From: Candidatus Hadarchaeota archaeon
Lineage (GTDB): Archaea; CAYQAE01; CAYVLA01
Assembly: GCA_964621445.1 (NCBI GenBank)
Contig: CAZUNO010000024.1
Coordinates: forward strand, 1-44,332
Reading direction: 5' to 3'
Length of the DNA stretch: 44,332 nucleotides
The position numbers and the translations under genes were made by a program. The notes below the pieces were generated by a model. It searched no databases. It was not told the DNA's origin and worked only from the letters and a program-made list of their open reading frames with translations. Every line of letters begins with the position of its first letter. The stretch's first letter is position 1. Below are positions 15,878 through 24,443 of this stretch, piece after piece.

Positions 15878-16526
15878 TATCTTTCCTCCTGATGATGAAC
15901 AGATCGGTCAGTACTACATACTTGGGCTTCCTGTGGAAGTCGAACTGGTGGGGAATGGAGACCTCTATTCCGATCTTATCCTGAACTGCGCCTCCCAGTT
16001 CCCATACATAGGCATTGACGAACCTCTCCACCCCTTCATCCCTCTTGTGAAGCGAGTAAAGGACCGGAGAGAGTTCAAGTCCCTTCCTCAGGAAAACTCG
16101 GTCCGATGACCGCGTCTGAACCCCGAAAGGGGGGTTCTGGACTGCCGTGTCGAATCTCCCCGTTTCTTGTATGTCGACCCGGGCCACATCGTTCTCTATC
16201 AATTTCACCCTAGTACTGACTACATCCCTTGCATGGGCCTGTGCTATATTTATGTTTTCTTGAGCGGTTTCCAGAGCTAGGGGATCGATATCAATCCCCA
16301 CCACCTCTTTCGCCCCACAGAGAGCGGCAGCTATGGCAAGCATTCCAGTTCCGCAACCCAGGTCACAAACGCGTCGGTTTTCTATATCTCCTCTATCCCA
16401 GGCCACGGTTATAATCCTGGCTGCCGCTTGGGGGGAAATATCATACTGCTCCAATCTGGGGTCGGGGTCCGGATGGCGGGAGAGGTGGGACAATATCATC
16501 TCCAGTTTTCTCTTACGTAATCTCAT
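15849..16526 (-). CDS. METTL5-family N6-adenine RNA methyltransferase
   Basis: LEQY, DLGCGTG.LAI, NPPFG, FH.K. Start moved to ATG 16526 (MRLRKRKLE), overlapping the end of dph2. Confidence 0.92.
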   Translation of the reverse strand: MRLRKRKLEMILSHLSRHPDPDPRLEQYDISPQAAARIITVAWDRGDIENRRVCDLGCGTGMLAIAAALCGAKEVVGIDIDPLALETAQENINIAQAHARDVVSTRVKLIENDVARVDIQETGRFDTAVQNPPFGVQTRSSDRVFLRKGLELSPVLYSLHKRDEGVERFVNAYVWELGGAVQDKIGIEVSIPHQFDFHRKPKYVVLTDLFIIRRKDIGSEKDTDR

Positions 16527-17517
16527 CCAGAGCATACTCCTCCCATTTACGTTCGCCAAGTAGAATTTCGAGTTCGATCGGGGTGATAACGGGTTTGGGG
16601 AACAGGACGGAGTCCTCTAAGGACATCCTTGGGCATCCGAAATTCACGTATGCATCGCATTTAGTTATCCTGAGTCGTTCGGGGTCGAGGTGGTCCGAAC
16701 AAAAGACGGTCCCTTCATATCCATCTTTCTCCAATTTTCCGAGGCAGGAAAGGGCCTCCTCGAGCCTATTTTGACCAGGTTTGGTGGAAACGATTATCCC
16801 AAATCTTCGGGCTCCCCTCGCTTTCTCGATTTGGGCGAATCTCTTTCTCAGGGCTCTCTCCGTCATCTCTTGCGCATCCCTGAGTTCATTTGAAAAGGGA
16901 TCCAACACGTAAACTTTCTTGCCTGTGCTTAGTGCCGCACCAAGGGGGTGGAAGTCGCCTCCTCCGACATACAGGAAGGCATCAACTTCCCCTTCCAGGC
17001 TTCTTGCAGCATGAAAGTTGCACCCAAGTATCTGACCTGGGTACTGGGTTCGGGTGCCTTGGGGTGCTACCCTGACTTGATGACCATTTTCCTCCAGTGT
17101 CCTGGATATCTCAGGTATCTCCTGGACATGTTGGACGTTTGCTAGGATGCCAATCCTGGATTCGGTTATACGTTTGACCTTTCTTCTCAGAGTTTCCTTG
17201 CCGGACACCCCGGAGAAGCAGGGCACGTATATGACCGGAATGCCGGGCAGATCGGTCATCTTGGCGTGGCCCATGTGCACGATGATGTCAGCTCCAAGCT
17301 CTGACAGAGAGCAAGGTATATCACAGGCACCAAAACAGGGGTCAATGGAAAAAACCGGGAAAGCTGAGGTCTCGGCCTCCACCTTCCGCCTTATATGGGG
17401 TATGTATCTCTTTAGTCCATCCGGCATTTGGAATACGACCACTCGGCTTTGCCTTCTACTTATTTCATCGATAACTCTCTCGAGTTCAAGGTCATAGTCC
17501 GGATAGGAAGTTTCCAC
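16513..17517 (-). CDS. dph2: Diphthamide biosynthesis enzyme Dph2
   Basis: QMPDGLK, CFGACD, HMGH, GQILGCN, GGG.FH.LG, STKPGQ, GCPR.S.ED. Confidence 0.96.
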   Translation of the reverse strand: METSYPDYDLELERVIDEISRRQSRVVVFQMPDGLKRYIPHIRRKVEAETSAFPVFSIDPCFGACDIPCSLSELGADIIVHMGHAKMTDLPGIPVIYVPCFSGVSGKETLRRKVKRITESRIGILANVQHVQEIPEISRTLEENGHQVRVAPQGTRTQYPGQILGCNFHAARSLEGEVDAFLYVGGGDFHPLGAALSTGKKVYVLDPFSNELRDAQEMTERALRKRFAQIEKARGARRFGIIVSTKPGQNRLEEALSCLGKLEKDGYEGTVFCSDHLDPERLRITKCDAYVNFGCPRMSLEDSVLFPKPVITPIELEILLGERKWEEYALDEIT

Positions 17518-17614
17518 ATGTGGGGTTGTCCCTATACCGATTTTAATGCTTTTAGAATCCTAGTATGCTAGACAAGAGTAAAGAACTTGAAACGGGAAGA
17601 TGGTAATGTGTTAG

Positions 17615-18433
17615 ATGTGGTCGAAGGTGCCTAAGAGGAAGTTGGATAAATTTCGCAAGGAGAGGGCTCTGGACAAGAAGAAAAGGGAGAGACTGGAGAA
17701 GGACATCGATGAGTTCCGGGTCTTTGCGGAAGTATTTGATTCCTCCACACTGATGGCGATATATCGCCTGCTGAGCCGAGGGGTGATAACAGGGGTACAT
17801 GGATGCATTAGAATGGGGAAGGAGTCCTGCATACATCTAGCCGAAGCTGAAGAGGAGGTGGTTATTCTCAAAGTTTACAGGGTTGCAACCTCCGATTTCA
17901 GAAATATGTGGCGTTATATACGGAGCGATCCCAGGTTCGATACAATTGCCAGAAAGAGAAGGAAAGTAATCCACACCTGGGCCTCCAGGGAATACAAGAA
18001 CCTTAGCACGGCCCGTGAGGCCGGTTGTTCCTGTCCCGAACCGATACAGTGGCACGAGAATCTCATCGTCATGGAATGCATAGAGAAGGAAGGGATGCCC
18101 GCACCGAGGCTGGTTGACATCGATTGCCAGTTCCCTGAGAGGTATCTGAAATCACTGGTGGGGGATTATAGGGCACTTTACCAGGAAGGCGAGATTGTCC
18201 ATGGAGATCTCTCACCGTATAATGTTTTGGAATCCGATGAGGGCCCGGTTATGATAGATTTCTCCCAGGGAACCATAAAGGATAATCCTCTTGCCGTCAA
18301 TCTCCTATTCAGGGATATCGAGAATTTGCTCCCCTATTTCAGCAAAAGGGGCTTGGAATCCGATGTTCAGTCCCTGGTGGAGGACATAACCGGCGTTGAG
18401 GGAATAGAACCAGATGAGAGCATCGCTATATGA
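17615..18433 (+). CDS. rio1: RIO1-family Ser/Thr kinase/ATPase
   Basis: GKES, KVYR...SDF..M..YI..DPRF, WA.REY.NL, HGDLSPYNVL, IDFSQ, RDI.N. Confidence 0.95.
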   Translation: MWSKVPKRKLDKFRKERALDKKKRERLEKDIDEFRVFAEVFDSSTLMAIYRLLSRGVITGVHGCIRMGKESCIHLAEAEEEVVILKVYRVATSDFRNMWRYIRSDPRFDTIARKRRKVIHTWASREYKNLSTAREAGCSCPEPIQWHENLIVMECIEKEGMPAPRLVDIDCQFPERYLKSLVGDYRALYQEGEIVHGDLSPYNVLESDEGPVMIDFSQGTIKDNPLAVNLLFRDIENLLPYFSKRGLESDVQSLVEDITGVEGIEPDESIAI

Positions 18434-19025
18434 AGCTAAATACCTTCTGGAGTTCCTTTGCAGCGAGCTCGGCGTTTTGGAAGGGATATTCTTCCACATC
18501 CCGGTCCTGGAAGACCTTTAGAGTCGCCCCGGAGATGGCACAATAGGCTACCGCATAGGACCGGTTAAGGTCCTGCTGCAATGCTATTGTTTCCGTCTCT
18601 TCCTGATCTCTCTTGGCCCTTACCCCGCGCTGCCTATCACGGTTTCGCCTCTCAACAATGGCACCAGGATTTACTTCCCTTAGAAATATCGAGTCAGGGC
18701 TAAGCTTCCGGAGTACCTCAAAGGGGAGTCCAGGGAAATAGCCGGCGGGCGAAGCGATAGTACAATGGGTATCAACTATCACGTTCTCCCCTAGCTTCTC
18801 GATCTCCGAGGAAAGAGCTTCAGCCGCTTTCTTCTGCATCTTCCTGGACCTTTCGATGCTTATCTTCTTTCGCATTTCGTCCCGGTCCTTCACCAAACCT
18901 GATTCGGTGGCAATTCGGAACATGAAATCGCCGAAGTTCAGAACATCGACATCCATTTCCTTCCTGAGGAATTCAATTACCTTTCCTTTTCCACAGCCAG
19001 GGACACCGGTGAGAACAACTATCAA
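18426..19025 (-). CDS. adkA: Archaeal adenylate kinase
   Basis: TGVPGCGK P-loop, NFGDFM, RDEMRK, IVDTH..I.SP.GY.PGLP. Confidence 0.92.
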   Translation of the reverse strand: MIVVLTGVPGCGKGKVIEFLRKEMDVDVLNFGDFMFRIATESGLVKDRDEMRKKISIERSRKMQKKAAEALSSEIEKLGENVIVDTHCTIASPAGYFPGLPFEVLRKLSPDSIFLREVNPGAIVERRNRDRQRGVRAKRDQEETETIALQQDLNRSYAVAYCAISGATLKVFQDRDVEEYPFQNAELAAKELQKVFSFI

Positions 19026-19480: not shown

Positions 19481-20203
19481 TTGGAGATAGGCGTGGTTGA
19501 CAACTTGAAGAAAAGGGGACTTATGTTACTGTCGGGGGGCTTGGACTCCACGGCTGCCCTGTGGTGGGCTTTGGATGGAAACTATGAGGGTGTAAAAGCC
19601 CTGACTTTCAGATATGGGTCAAAGGAGGAAAGGGTATCGATCCACTGTGCATACCAGATCGCTAACCGTGCCCGGATAGGTCATGATGTTATTAATCTCG
19701 ACATATTGAGTACCCTAGCTCGGGGCAAGAGCTCGCTTATGGAGGGAGGGAGTTCAATCCCTGAGGGTATGGGAACCACGAGTTCAGTTTGGGTCCCAGC
19801 TCGTAATCTGGTAATGCTGTCGGTCGCCTCCTCGTTTGCCGAGGGGCTTTCCAATGCCGTGGATATCATAGTTGGCTTTGATGAACAGGAAGCCAGGACC
19901 TTTCCCGATAACTCCAGGCGCTTCGTGAGGAATTTTAACAAAACTTTATCGGATGCCGTCCTTGAGAAGGAAATCAAGGTCGTTGCTCCTCTGATTGACA
20001 TGGATAAGAAGGAGATAGTTCGAACTGCACAGCGAATGGGTGCTCCAATCGAACTGAGTTGTTCCTGTTATAGACCAAGGGGATTCATAAACCATCGGCC
20101 CGTTCATTGTGGTAGCTGCCAGAGCTGTATCTTGAGGCATAGGGGATTCCTGGATGCAGGAGTTAAGGATCCCACCGATTACGAGGTGGAGCCAGGTGAG
20201 TGA
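19481..20203 (+). CDS. queC: 7-cyano-7-deazaguanine (preQ0) synthase
   Basis: LSGGLDS PP-loop, VWVPARN, FPDNS, APLI...K..IV, SCY...HCGSCQSC.LR..GF zinc site; no GAT fusion. Confidence 0.96.
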   Translation: MEIGVVDNLKKRGLMLLSGGLDSTAALWWALDGNYEGVKALTFRYGSKEERVSIHCAYQIANRARIGHDVINLDILSTLARGKSSLMEGGSSIPEGMGTTSSVWVPARNLVMLSVASSFAEGLSNAVDIIVGFDEQEARTFPDNSRRFVRNFNKTLSDAVLEKEIKVVAPLIDMDKKEIVRTAQRMGAPIELSCSCYRPRGFINHRPVHCGSCQSCILRHRGFLDAGVKDPTDYEVEPGE

Positions 20204-20999
20204 AGAGGGCTACCTGTGGAGCATCTTCTCGAGTTACCAGGGTGAGGGGGGTTCGGTTGCGGGAAGCTGTCTTGGGAAGAGGCAGATCTTCGTCCGGTTT
20301 TCGGGCTGTAATCTAGCCCAAGGATCTATGGGGACCAGGGGGTGCATATATTGTGACACCCCCGAATCGAATGACCAGAAGGCGTCTTTTGTCAGGTTTC
20401 AGCAGATCCCGGGCTCCAAGGAATTCGAAAAGCTGGAAAATCCGTTGAATGCGGAGGAGGCGAGCCGGGTTATTCAAGGACTGAAAACCAGTGATCTGCA
20501 TTCGGTGAGCTTGACGGGAGGGGAGCCCCTATTTCAGCCCCGGTTCTTAGCCGAGCTGGCGCGGGAGCTAAATGGGAAAGGAATGAGAACCTACCTGGAG
20601 ACTAATGGCTCGCTACCCCAGAACCTGGGGGTCGTATCCAAGCATATCGATTTTGCCTGTGTCGATGTCAAGGATAGATCCGCCAAGGCGGCCGAGGACT
20701 GGAATCATCTGATTGACAGGGAACTCGAATCAATAGGAATATTGAGCGAGTCGGGAGCGAAAGTATTTGGTAAGCTGGTGGTAACTAGCCAAACGAGACC
20801 GGAGGACGCGGGAATGGTAGCTAGTGCTCTTTCGGAACTGGATTGCCCTCTCAACATTCAGGTGGTGACGCCGGTGAAGGGGGTGAAGAGACCTTCTCAG
20901 GGACTGATCTTTTCGCTTACCGAGGCCGCATCGAAGCATTTACAACCGGAACTGATCAGTATCTCCGTTCAGATTCATAAGGAACTGGGTCTTCCTTAG
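20196..20999 (+). CDS. queE: 7-carboxy-7-deazaguanine synthase (radical SAM) with CX11CX2C motif
   Basis: IFSS.QGEG, RQIFVRFSGCNL...CIYCDT, VSLTGGEPL, YLETNG, Q.HK. Start GTG 20196 overlaps the queC stop. Confidence 0.93.
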   Translation: MSEEGYLWSIFSSYQGEGGSVAGSCLGKRQIFVRFSGCNLAQGSMGTRGCIYCDTPESNDQKASFVRFQQIPGSKEFEKLENPLNAEEASRVIQGLKTSDLHSVSLTGGEPLFQPRFLAELARELNGKGMRTYLETNGSLPQNLGVVSKHIDFACVDVKDRSAKAAEDWNHLIDRELESIGILSESGAKVFGKLVVTSQTRPEDAGMVASALSELDCPLNIQVVTPVKGVKRPSQGLIFSLTEAASKHLQPELISISVQIHKELGLP

Positions 21000-21008
21000 G
21001 CGATTTTC

Positions 21009-21800
21009 TTGAAGGAGAAACAGACACAGGATCGGAAGCCAAAGATAATGGAAAGAATTGACAGAGTTGGTGTGGAGAATGTGCGCACTCATCTAAAGAT
21101 TGAGAGAGATGGCACGACTCTGTTCCACCTGCCGCTACTTGATGTTGCCATAGACCTGAAGGAGGACAAGAAGGGCATCCACATGTCCCGGATCATTGAA
21201 ACCATAAACGAGGTGGTTTCAAGAAGGCACTCGGATCCAAGTCTAGAAAAGGTGGGCTATGACATACTGCGAGGGATAGCCAGGCGACATGAATACCTGA
21301 GGGGCGAAGCAACGATAAGGACCCATCTCCTGGTGCCCCGGACTACCCCGGCCTCGAAAAAGCGTACTTATGAGGACTACGACGTTACCGTTAAGGTCAC
21401 CAAGGATGGGAAATTCCGGAAATATCTGGAGGTCAAGGCCATTGGAAATACTCTATGCCCACATAGTTTGGTTTTGACCGGAGGGAAATCACATATCCAG
21501 CGGGCAGAGCTGGTCTTTGGCATAGATACCGATTTTGAAAAGGACGTGGAGCTGACCGAAATGGCAGACATCTGTGATTCATGTTTTTCCAGCCCTACGT
21601 ACATGGTGGTAAAGGGCGAGGATGAGGAGTACCTGGTGGAGCAGATGTTTGCAAATCCCAAGTTCGTTGAGGACCTGGCTCGTGACTGCCTTATAAAATC
21701 CAGAAAACTTGGAGTGAAAGGCAAGGTAAGGATACGTGCACGGAGTTTCGAGTCCATACATAAACATGACGCGTTTTGCGAGATAGAGAGGGAGATATAG
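21009..21800 (+). CDS. folE2: GTP cyclohydrolase, FolE2/MptA (GCYH-IB/IV) family
   Basis: TQD, RVGV, KGIHMSR, TLCP, H.QR, K..DE...V...F.NPKFVEDLAR, ESIH.HDA. Confidence 0.93.
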   Translation: MKEKQTQDRKPKIMERIDRVGVENVRTHLKIERDGTTLFHLPLLDVAIDLKEDKKGIHMSRIIETINEVVSRRHSDPSLEKVGYDILRGIARRHEYLRGEATIRTHLLVPRTTPASKKRTYEDYDVTVKVTKDGKFRKYLEVKAIGNTLCPHSLVLTGGKSHIQRAELVFGIDTDFEKDVELTEMADICDSCFSSPTYMVVKGEDEEYLVEQMFANPKFVEDLARDCLIKSRKLGVKGKVRIRARSFESIHKHDAFCEIEREI

Positions 21801-22438
21801 TGGAGGGGGAGGCCATAAAGCACCAGGTCAAGGGAGCAATGTTTCCAATCAAGATATTTGAGTGGAACAAGGAACACAAATACGTGGGGGAGGAGATAAC
21901 CCATCTCTGGTTCTCCAATATCGTAGGCGCCGAGGCCTATGGGAACATAGTCTTCATCTGGCGGGGTCCAATGGATGTGACGCTGGAGAATGTGAAGGAC
22001 CAGACCGAGAGGGTTGAATGGAAAGCCGGAACAAGGATAAGAGGGCCGGATCTGTATCATGTGGTGGCCGATTTCCCACAAATAGCAGGGGACCTAAAGT
22101 TAATGTACGCCTTTCAGAGCATGCTAGCAAAGGATTTGGCACTGGGGTTATGTTCACGAGGTCTAGATCCGGAAGTTAAAGGAAGCGATATTTTCATAGA
22201 AGGTGAAAAGCTGAATGTTGGAGTTTGCACCTCCACGGCCAACTCATGCAATATGCATTTCGGGGTGAACGTTACCCTGAATGGGGAACCCAGCATTCCC
22301 GTTGGTGTAAGGGCTTCAAGCCTTACGAAAGTTCTTGGACAGGATGCGGACGCCTCCATGGCCCTAATGCGAGAGGTTATTATCAGCTGGGCTGAAAGCC
22401 TGGAAAATCTGGTTCGCAAGAGCTACAAAACGGTATAG
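21800..22438 (+). CDS. DUF366-family protein (biotin/lipoate ligase-like fold)
   Basis: Y.G.EI...W, WRGPMDV.LE...D, I.G.D..H....F, DLKL.Y..Q.ML, KGSDIFIEGEKLNVGV, HFGVNV, P.GV.A.SL match the DUF366 pattern. GTG start overlaps the folE2 TAG. Confidence 0.8.
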   Translation: MEGEAIKHQVKGAMFPIKIFEWNKEHKYVGEEITHLWFSNIVGAEAYGNIVFIWRGPMDVTLENVKDQTERVEWKAGTRIRGPDLYHVVADFPQIAGDLKLMYAFQSMLAKDLALGLCSRGLDPEVKGSDIFIEGEKLNVGVCTSTANSCNMHFGVNVTLNGEPSIPVGVRASSLTKVLGQDADASMALMREVIISWAESLENLVRKSYKTV

Positions 22439-22906
22439 GTGGCAAACTTGTTCTCTGTTAGCGTGGATAAAAGCCGTTTGAAATTCAGCGCAGCCCACTT
22501 CCTGGTCAGCCATGAGAAATGTGGAAGGCTGCACGGACATAATTACAGAGTGAGGGTCGGCGTGAAAGGGGACCTGGACGAGAAGGGGATGCTTGTGGAT
22601 TTCGGGTCCTTAACCGATAAGACTTGGGAAGTTTGCCAGGAGATGGACCAGAAGGTTATAGTCCCTTCCCTAAATCCGGACATGGCCATATCGCGGGGCG
22701 GTGAGGAGATCCGGGTCCTGCTTCCCGATCGGGAATACGTGTTGCCAAAATCCGACGTTCTTGAGATTCCAGTCAGGTCGGCCACGGCCGAGGAGCTGGC
22801 AGCCTACATCTTTAGGCGCGTAAATGAGGGCATTGGAGGGCTTGATTTCGTCGAGATCGAGGAAACGAGAGGATCGGCGGCCCGGTTCGAACCCGGGAAG
22901 GATTAG
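22439..22906 (+). CDS. queD: 6-carboxy-5,6,7,8-tetrahydropterin synthase
   Basis: FSAAHFL, CGRLHGHNY, GML.DF, TAEELA.YI, EET.G..A. Confidence 0.94.
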   Translation: MANLFSVSVDKSRLKFSAAHFLVSHEKCGRLHGHNYRVRVGVKGDLDEKGMLVDFGSLTDKTWEVCQEMDQKVIVPSLNPDMAISRGGEEIRVLLPDREYVLPKSDVLEIPVRSATAEELAAYIFRRVNEGIGGLDFVEIEETRGSAARFEPGKD

Positions 22907-23700
22907 ATATGAAATAGCTTCTCGGCGTTTCGTCCCAGGATGTTTAGCTTCTGGCTACTCTTGATATCCGCATATACCACCTTACCGACCTGGGGATTTG
23001 GATCCAGAAAAGGCATATCAGATCCGAAGAGAATCCTCTTTGACCCCAGGGAATCGACCATGCTCTCGATAAGCCCGAATGTCTTTGAGCCACAGGTCTC
23101 GAGGTATATATTCTGATGGAACGAGGCGGTTTCAATTGCCTCTTCAACACCTTTGGGGGTTCCACCGGAGTGGACAAGAACGAAATCGGTTCCCGGATAA
23201 TCCGAGGCCAGTTCACCGTAGATTTCGGGGTTGCAGCGTTTATCCCCCTCCCAGGTGTGAGTGGTAACTGGTAGGTCATTTTTGCCCGACGCCTCATAGA
23301 TCCACCTGTAAATCTCCCCGTCGGCCGGGTAGTCATGGAGAGATGGATGGAGCTTGACCCCCTTCATCCTGGGGGAGGACGACATCTTGTTGAACTCCTC
23401 CCGAGCGAGTTCCGGGTAATTAGGGTTAATACCTATGGCCCCCCAGAAGCGACCCGGGTATCTCCTGGCTGAGCTCTCCGCGGTCCTATTCCCGCGCTGG
23501 AAACCTGGCCCTATGGATATCAGCGGGGCAATTATGGCCGAATCTATGCCAACGGCGTCCATGGAGACCAGCATTCCCTTCGCGTCTCCGTAAGGTACGT
23601 GGAAGTTCCAGTAAGGCCCCATGTGTGCATGCGAATCTACAATTTTGATATCGGAAAGGGTGCAACCCGAGTTGGTCTTGGATATTAGTTCCTTAGTCAA
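22903..23700 (-). CDS. Amidohydrolase-2 family metallo-hydrolase
   Basis: IVDSHAH, GVKLHP, HT, LVHSGG, NIYLET, RILFGSD.P, ILG.NA..LF. Confidence 0.9.
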   Translation of the reverse strand: MTKELISKTNSGCTLSDIKIVDSHAHMGPYWNFHVPYGDAKGMLVSMDAVGIDSAIIAPLISIGPGFQRGNRTAESSARRYPGRFWGAIGINPNYPELAREEFNKMSSSPRMKGVKLHPSLHDYPADGEIYRWIYEASGKNDLPVTTHTWEGDKRCNPEIYGELASDYPGTDFVLVHSGGTPKGVEEAIETASFHQNIYLETCGSKTFGLIESMVDSLGSKRILFGSDMPFLDPNPQVGKVVYADIKSSQKLNILGRNAEKLFHI

Positions 23701-24443
23701 TCCCGTATTCCCTCGATTAGTCTATTGAGATTCCCGCCCAAGATTTTGGACTTTTCCTCCCCCGATATCTGGGCATAACGTATGGCCATGGCCATGGGTC
23801 CCGGAGCAAATTCAGGACTCCTGCTTCCGAAAAGTAAACGGGAAGAGCCGAACCTCTTGCATAAGGTCTCTATTCCTCGATGGTTTTGATAGAAAGATGT
23901 CTCCAGGTGGAGATTCCGGTTCCGACTTAGGAGGGGGAAGAGAAAACGATTCACTCTGTAGTTCACGTTGGAGAGGACAATCGGTAACTCGGGATGGGAT
24001 TGGCAGACGGCATTTATGTGCTCCGGGTCGGTCTGATCCAGGTCGACCAATATAGGCATACGGTGGGCCTCCATGGTACTCAGCAGCTCGCCACAGCACC
24101 ATTCAACTAGCGGGAACCTGTGATCCTTTGGGAAAAGACGACCCATTACCACCTTTTTGGCAACCATTTCTTGAAGGATTTCCTCGGGAGGCTTTAACTC
24201 TCGTGTGGCGGGAGGTAGTAGGACCCAGGTCGGAAGTAGCCTCGGTCTCCCGGATATCTCCTCCATCAGCTTTTTATTGCCGATCCGGGGATCATGTTCT
24301 TTGGCCCAGGCGTGGTAAACAACGGTGGCGTTTATTTCCGCCTTATCCATTTGTCCCTTTACTGCCTCGGGAGTTAATGGTCCCCTTGCACCGGGTACGG
24401 TCTCCTTTCCTATCCTGCAGTTACAATCTATCTTGGAGTACAA
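23697..24443 (-). CDS. Amidohydrolase-2-like protein with degenerate metal site
   Basis: Same fold pattern (N.HLETS, RLLFGS..P, ILGGNL.RL) but DCNC replaces DxHxH and GSR replaces GSD. Confidence 0.85.
   Translation of the reverse strand: MYSKIDCNCRIGKETVPGARGPLTPEAVKGQMDKAEINATVVYHAWAKEHDPRIGNKKLMEEISGRPRLLPTWVLLPPATRELKPPEEILQEMVAKKVVMGRLFPKDHRFPLVEWCCGELLSTMEAHRMPILVDLDQTDPEHINAVCQSHPELPIVLSNVNYRVNRFLFPLLSRNRNLHLETSFYQNHRGIETLCKRFGSSRLLFGSRSPEFAPGPMAMAIRYAQISGEEKSKILGGNLNRLIEGIRD

Follow-up and report, generated by a model that had tools for sequence, protein, structure and literature searches.

A DUF366 protein of the biotin/lipoate-ligase fold accompanies preQ0 biosynthesis genes in archaea, bacteria and phages and is a candidate helper of the pathway

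The queuosine and archaeosine of tRNA, the 7-deazaguanines in the DNA of phages and bacteria, and deazapurine antibiotics all draw on the route from GTP to preQ0, which is regarded as complete with four enzymes. According to the review PMC5699537, preQ0 is made in bacteria and archaea by FolE or FolE2, QueD, QueE, and QueC, and the last of these converts the carboxylate 7-carboxy-7-deazaguanine (CDG) to the nitrile via an amide in two ATP-dependent steps. A second described system relevant here is the protein PH0223 of Pyrococcus horikoshii, a member of the family DUF366 (PF04017), whose structure is deposited as PDB entry 2DDZ; the entry assigns no function. The two systems meet in a 44,332-nucleotide stretch of DNA from a Candidatus Hadarchaeota archaeon (assembly GCA_964621445.1, contig CAZUNO010000024.1, positions 1 to 44,332), referred to below as the window. 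Between positions 19481 and 22906 it carries five co-directional plus-strand genes in the order queC, queE, FolE2-family GTP cyclohydrolase (folE2), DUF366, and queD.

DUF366 is conserved as part of preQ0 gene sets and, among the archaeal genomes surveyed, is confined to those that bear QueC (37 of 38). It is very probably a component of the preQ0 pathway of some kind. The DUF366 gene of the window (21800–22438, plus strand) encodes 212 residues and is embedded tightly in the operon. The TAG stop of folE2 (21798–21800) and the GTG start of DUF366 have G21800 in common, and the TAG of DUF366 ends at 22438, directly abutting the GTG of queD at 22439. At the other end of the operon, the octanucleotide GTGAGTGA (20196–20203) contains both the GTG start of queE and the TGA stop of queC, which overlap by 8 nt. 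The five-gene operon and these start and stop overlaps, read directly in the sequence, are exactly as claimed in the original prediction made from this DNA. QueC, QueD, QueE, and a GTP cyclohydrolase are all encoded together at the locus. The arrangement is not due to chance, because three relatives from the window's family have the same row of genes and DUF366 is found in the que clusters of many other lineages.

The archaeal survey covered 151 genomes, including that of the window. DUF366 was found in 38 of them, full-length QueC (at least 131 bits, with the next match at 44 bits) in 70, PTPS/QueD in 68, and a PF02649 cyclohydrolase in 76. Within the 38 DUF366 genomes, these three components are present in 37, 37, and 38, respectively. 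DUF366 occurs in 37 of the 70 QueC-positive genomes, compared with 1 of the 81 QueC-negative ones. The sole DUF366 genome with no QueC match is a 230-contig assembly in which the DUF366 gene is positioned 157 nt from a contig end. The 38 genomes belong to 12 families, and DUF366 lies beside que genes in eight families (19 genomes). The order queC-queE-folE2-DUF366-queD is found in all four genomes of the window's family, folE2-DUF366 in one genome of its class, DUF366-queD-queE in three archaeal families, and queC-DUF366-queE(-queD) in another three. Two features were considered as discriminators for the presence of DUF366 and rejected: both the short and the long types of QueD co-occur with it, and the same type of QueE (hidden Markov model (HMM) scores 218–290) is found without DUF366 in families f13, f19, f33, and f56.

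Two archaeal neighbourhoods contain other genes next to DUF366. In one family a PCC/DUF296 gene is positioned directly 5′ of DUF366 (L018:5629-6561 and L019:5989-6932), and one genome has a single 310-residue frame with both domains. In a methanogen-type genome with no que linkage (L043:5912-6916), DUF366 adjoins the genes of beta-ribofuranosylaminobenzene 5′-phosphate synthase, an enzyme of the methanopterin pathway, and methanogenesis marker 9.

Bacterial-type loci were taken as the best 80 of 453 metagenome loci retrieved with nine named bacterial members as the query, and que genes in bacterial and viral loci were called with HMMs built in this analysis on archaeal que proteins. Genes of the que set are present at 63 of the 80 bacterial-type loci, usually in the row queD-queC-DUF366-queE. 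The gene directly before DUF366 encodes QueC at 48 loci and QueD at 3, and the gene directly after it encodes QueE at 46. Among the 11 bacterial operons whose flanks were checked by Pfam, eight have canonical FolE (PF01227) after queE, followed by surE. In six bacterial-type contigs (L087, L088, L095, L098, L108, and L110), the neighbours of DUF366 are genes for signal peptidase S26, surE, and EF-G, and the 10 kb covered contain no que gene; contigs related to those six carry queD-queC-DUF366-queE in the same place.

At viral loci, que genes are present in 16 of 20. QueC is encoded immediately upstream of DUF366 in nine of them, an open reading frame with a QueC domain follows immediately downstream in one, and QueE is adjacent in none; the viral QueE scores are low (46–102), and the proteins concerned may be other radical-SAM proteins. 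One viral locus has QueC-DUF366 alone. By Pfam, the viral loci are phage deazaguanine modules with FolE2 or FolE, one of them also with QueF. In contig L158 (5971–7942), DUF366 is followed by a 488-residue open reading frame with the QueC domain at residues 274–482, and a FolE2 gene is positioned upstream; the N-terminal 270 residues of this frame match no Pfam family. A tblastn search of the GenBank phage collection gave one weak match, in Microcystis phage MaAM05 (E 4e-3), without que neighbours. The expectation of the original prediction that DUF366 would be linked to que genes in other genomes was thus borne out in archaea, bacteria, and viruses; its restriction of the role to archaea was not, since DUF366 also belongs to bacterial operons and phage modules.

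The assignment of the open reading frame to DUF366 was confirmed by the PF04017 model, which it matches with E 5e-25 and 88.5 bits against a cut-off of 29.9, over profile positions 4–183 of 184. Other archaeal members reach 174–257 bits, compared with 88 bits for the window protein. With a threshold of E 1e-5, the profile search for the family returned 1001 DUF366 proteins. In the best 120 of these, PF04017 is the sole domain, and the names among them are those of methanogens and anaerobic Bacillota (Carboxydocella, Desulfotomaculales, Pelotomaculum, Desulforudis, Calderihabitans, and others). Just one of the proteins seen has further domains: P0090 (347 residues) carries two Clp_N repeats together with a full DUF366 domain. 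A phylogeny of 43 DUF366 proteins groups the window protein in a long-form clade of eight rows (support 100/99); the canonical members, whether archaeal, bacterial, or viral, all lie on the far side of a very long branch (2.78). An exhaustive search of 1.84 billion representatives turned up five long-form clusters and no more (E 9e-72 to 8e-29), with canonical members at E 5e-15 and weaker. The ESM Atlas returned only DUF366 clusters and nothing usable beyond those.

The sole convincing match to a solved structure by sequence is 2DDZ (E 2.2e-10), the hypothetical protein of P. horikoshii. An AlphaFold2 model of the window protein, based on 44 sequences and with a predicted local distance difference test score of 94.9, superposes on 2DDZ with a Z-score of 25.9 and a root-mean-square deviation of 1.4 Å over 184 aligned residues. 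The same model aligns to biotin protein ligases, LipB, and LplA with Z-scores of 12–13.5 over approximately 165–175 residues, and Foldseek matches to ligase catalytic domains have E of about 1e-6 and TM-scores of 0.5–0.57. PF03099 does not match the window protein up to E 10, although the HMMER filters discard most weak matches. The modelled protein forms a single domain that ends with a long helix (183–211). The ligase chains align to it only as far as approximately residue 176 of about 230, and DUF366 has no cap domain. Because it is equally far from the three known branches, those of the biotin protein ligases, LipB, and LplA, DUF366 as modelled is a separate, fourth branch of the fold and a member of none of them.

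Across 44 diverse family members, including the window protein, residues G30, G56, D67, K137, and N157 are invariant, and Y28, D130, S149, H153, and K210 are at least 90% conserved. D130 (22187–22189) and K137 (22208–22210) belong to an Asp-x6-Lys motif in the segment KGSDIFIEGEKLNVG (plus strand, 22178–22222; residues 127–141), and their equivalents are invariant in two further DUF366 alignments. The original prediction had recognised a segment resembling that of the biotin/lipoate ligases, including the lysine; the fold of the model and the presence of K137 in 44 of 44 sequences agree with it. In a profile comparison with five archaeal ligases (hhalign), D130 and K137 fall with the same spacing on the N-D116 and K123 positions, at a low probability of 9.7% and E 0.0033, and the same low-probability alignment places H153-x-G-x-N157 on the G-I-N strand of the ligases. 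The residue equivalence of the DUF366 and ligase motifs is likely from this comparison. The GRGRxGR biotin/ATP loop, which reads QTxGRGRxGR in the ligase alignment, is absent from DUF366, as is the LipB cysteine. Judged by strand order, the sequence (F/W)-R-G-P appears to stand in place of the loop, with G56 invariant and R55 variable.

The other genes of the operon encode a complete, though in parts unusual, set of preQ0 enzymes. The queC gene (7-cyano-7-deazaguanine synthase; 19481–20203, plus strand) matches PF06508 with E 2.1e-57 and TIGR00364 with 170.7 bits against a cut-off of 150.3, and the C-terminal cysteine cluster is present. The longest open reading frame opens with TTG at 19481; the true start is probably the ATG at 19523, because the Pfam match begins only at residue 14 of that frame. 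The queE gene (radical-SAM 7-carboxy-7-deazaguanine synthase; 20196–20999, plus strand) matches Radical_SAM with E 7.6e-10. The top NCBIfam matches of its product are QueE models, every one under its cut-off, and the product is homologous to genes that occupy the QueE position in other que clusters. Its GTG start is consistent with the N-termini of 13 aligned homologues. In the window family, residues 38–53 of QueE form the cluster motif CX11CX2C with an eight-residue insertion, whereas the other aligned archaeal homologues have CX3CX2C; the best NCBIfam match is the Cx14CxxC type of QueE.

The cyclohydrolase (21009–21800, plus strand) is of the short type of the FolE2/GCHY-1 family and matches PF02649 with E 3.2e-57. 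It falls under all three NCBIfam subtype cut-offs, those of GTP cyclohydrolase IV (264/468), MptA (168.6/220), and FolE2 (149.8/215), and the MptA model (TIGR00294) matches it in two pieces. It is the sole PF02649 gene of the genome, in which no canonical FolE (PF01227) was found. The queD gene (6-carboxytetrahydropterin synthase; 22439–22906, plus strand) is of the long type and matches PF01242 with E 3.5e-23. Its product contains an insertion of approximately 35 residues and scores 72.3 bits with TIGR03367, under the cut-off of 89.25. The C-x3-HGH motif, presumably of the QueD type, is invariant across the QueD alignment. As read from the gene layout, queD is the last gene of the operon, because a convergent gene overlaps its stop codon.

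The ligase fold activates carboxylic acids with ATP, and the superfamily lysine binds the acyl-adenylate. The only carboxylic acids of the preQ0 pathway are 6-carboxytetrahydropterin (CPH4) and CDG. The most frequent immediate neighbour of DUF366 is QueC, in bacteria, in phages, and in three archaeal families. Because the fold activates carboxylates, CPH4 and CDG are the sole carboxylates of the pathway, and QueC is the most constant neighbour, the reading preferred here is that DUF366 may be an accessory helper that binds CDG, possibly with ATP, and works with QueC at the CDG-to-preQ0 stage. A probability of roughly 0.4 is assigned to this reading, in which the ligand, the partner, and the chemistry are all putative. 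Since many organisms complete the pathway without DUF366, it is a helper rather than an obligatory step.

DUF366 would retain the Asp-x6-Lys hairpin and, where the sequences of the ligases have ligand-binding motifs, a set of conserved polar residues; it has lost the biotin- and lipoate-specific loops and the cap domain. It may then serve as an adaptor by which CDG is handed from QueE to QueC. Ammonia is released by QueE and consumed by QueC, and it is a speculation that DUF366 also passes this ammonia on. Alternatively, DUF366 itself might form the acyl-adenylate of CDG. The adenylation or amidation of CDG, one of several roles that the original prediction offered, fits the adjacency to QueC. 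A more far-reaching version is doubtful: preQ0 biosynthesis would have in DUF366 a true fifth enzyme or subunit, representing a fourth branch of the ligase fold in function as well, and by binding or adenylating CDG it would couple QueE to QueC, with direct use of CDG and ammonia. To raise flux, the gene would have been kept by anaerobic archaea, Bacillota-type bacteria, and DNA-modifying phages, and the Hadarchaeota-type long form would be a fast-evolving variant re-wired beside the cyclohydrolase and QueD.

Several observations weigh against the placement of DUF366 with CDG and QueC. In the window itself, DUF366 is positioned between folE2 and queD and does not adjoin queC, and queD is its immediate neighbour in four archaeal families. 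DUF366 is missing from 33 of the 70 QueC-positive archaeal genomes and from the control genomes of E. coli, B. subtilis, Haloferax, and Sulfolobus, all of which have QueC and PTPS. No linkage to que genes was found in four archaeal families (19 genomes), of which 12 genomes were inspected as DNA and the other seven were judged by the coordinates of QueC, PTPS, and PF02649 matches. There is no que gene at 17 of the 80 bacterial-type and 4 of the 20 viral loci, some of which are on short contigs. The counts overstate the support, as neither related genomes nor metagenome loci are independent of one another. The residue match to the ligases depends on a low-probability profile alignment. A fusion of DUF366 to QueC or to any other que enzyme was not found among proteins of 400–2000 residues, which is weak evidence. 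Of the 1001 relatives of near-equal length, the best 120 have PF04017 as their sole domain.

The other assignments within the pathway differ in the stage at which DUF366 would act. It is unlikely that DUF366 helps the pterin stage by binding the labile carboxylate CPH4 and transferring it from QueD to QueE, or that it otherwise supports QueE. CPH4 is likewise a carboxylic acid, QueE is encoded immediately downstream in 46 of the 80 bacterial-type loci and in three archaeal families, and QueD adjoins DUF366 in the window as well as in four archaeal families; however, the adjacent gene in viruses is that of QueC at 9 of 20 loci and that of QueE or QueD at none, and the four families f13, f19, f33, and f56 manage with the same QueE type in the absence of DUF366. 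Quite unlikely is a non-catalytic sensor or regulatory subunit that binds preQ0 or a relative and modulates the pathway enzymes, a role known from some degenerate paralogues of ligases or synthetases. The absence of the GRGRxGR substrate loop and of the cap domain would suit such a role, as would the dispensability of DUF366 in many lineages and the self-interaction of PH0223 listed in a two-hybrid table (PMC1414084). The invariant Asp-x6-Lys motif and the many conserved acidic and histidine residues resemble an active site more closely than they do a loose site for binding, and retention by phages with compact modification modules fits an increase in flux better than feedback control. A bridge from MptA to QueD, in which DUF366 converts or channels 7,8-dihydroneopterin 2′,3′-cyclic phosphate into the QueD substrate, is very unlikely. 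MptA yields this cyclic phosphate, and the original prediction had tied DUF366 to it. The overlapping and abutting codons of folE2-DUF366-queD in the window and three family relatives, an MptA-type gene (227 bits, cut-off 220) just ahead of DUF366 in one genome of the same class, and the PF02649 enzyme in 38 of 38 DUF366 archaeal genomes, 27 of them over the MptA cut-off, all point towards it. Yet the adjacency to folE2 is limited to one class, canonical FolE (PF01227) accompanies DUF366 in 8 of the 11 bacterial operons checked, and one phage module has FolE and QueF. The profiling against the MptA type that the original prediction called for showed that MptA is not the discriminator: nine archaeal genomes of three families, all with QueC, PTPS, and an MptA-type enzyme above the cut-off, lack DUF366, and in families f1 and f8 the cyclohydrolase of the 11 DUF366 genomes, that of the window among them, is short and under the MptA cut-off. 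Haloferax and Sulfolobus, too, have QueC and PTPS without DUF366.

Roles beyond preQ0 fare worse. A ligase fold could join a carboxylate to an amine, and the genome of the window has only one TGT-domain gene, which leaves its archaeosine-forming step without an assigned gene; DUF366 could thus be a tailoring enzyme for a new 7-deazaguanine derivative or for archaeosine formation, as the original prediction had also suggested. This is highly improbable, as the hosts differ in their end products: archaea make archaeosine, Bacillota-type bacteria queuosine, and phages modified DNA bases, with QueF in one module, and the route common to all leads only to preQ0. Furthermore, DUF366 never adjoins tgt or arcS in the loci examined. 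That DUF366 is a hitch-hiking neighbour of unrelated function is scarcely credible. It is positioned away from que genes in 19 of the 38 DUF366 archaeal genomes, has signal peptidase and surE but no que genes as neighbours at some bacterial loci, and has no que neighbours in its lone weak match from the phage collection, but its near-strict nesting in QueC-bearing genomes (37 of 38, and 1 of 81 without QueC) and the linkage seen independently in archaea, bacteria, and viruses, in differing gene orders, argue for a connection.

The operon is followed by two convergent Amidohydro_2 (PF04909) genes on the minus strand (22903–23700 and 23697–24443). The pair also follows queD in all three same-family genomes, and in two of these a URO-D gene comes next. 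The Amidohydro_2 family includes non-oxidative decarboxylases; a tie of the pair to deazapurine carboxylates is pure speculation. Upstream (16513–19025) are a diphthamide synthesis gene, a RIO kinase gene, and an AAA_17 kinase-like gene, and the order of the RIO and AAA_17 genes is kept in two family relatives. The genome of the window, with a completeness of 96%, has a single DUF366 gene and no match to the biotin/lipoate ligase family PF03099. It contains a second PTPS-family gene and just one TGT-domain gene, in a 580-residue open frame (loci C12:21215-21625 and C17:50931-51899). Its nearest relatives in the genome collection are metagenome-assembled genomes labelled Hadarchaeota or uncultured Thermococci.

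The statement of the original prediction that DUF366 has no published function holds for the literature searched. The search for DUF366, PF04017, COG2029, PH0223, and 2DDZ gave as its only relevant item the P. horikoshii two-hybrid table (PMC1414084). Literature on preQ0, QueC, lipoate, MptA, and CDG contained nothing on DUF366; the neighbourhood tables of PMC13082051, which were outside this search, might list PF04017. Two 2026 preprints on QueC and deazapurine clusters gave no match to the DUF in a search by term, and no literature joining archaeosine, QueD, and MptA was found. A structurally solved, functionless protein thus accompanies preQ0 genes in three kinds of genomes, those of archaea, bacteria, and phages, and the pathway probably has an unrecognised helper. 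If DUF366 does act on CDG, the ligase fold could gain a new class of substrates. The window contributes a DUF366 clade that is both rare and divergent, together with an unusual order of genes.

The closest described relative of the window protein is PH0223, which belongs to the same family, has the same fold, and shares the Asp-x6-Lys segment. In contrast to PH0223, to which it is 24% identical, the window protein has an extra N-terminal hairpin and belongs to the separate long-form clade. The catalytic-domain fold is common to DUF366 and the ligases, namely BirA and the P. horikoshii biotin protein ligase, LplA, and LipB, and the Asp-x6-Lys hairpin and the following G-x-N strand can be aligned with theirs by profile (probability 9.7%). 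DUF366 differs from these enzymes in that it has no GRGRxGR motif, no LipB cysteine, no cap domain, and no PF03099 match, and to our knowledge no acceptor protein for it has been described. Relative to the four-enzyme preQ0 pathway, the operon of the window encodes all four activities, and adds to them an embedded fifth gene, a QueE with the motif CX11CX2C, and a short cyclohydrolase that falls under every NCBIfam subtype cut-off.

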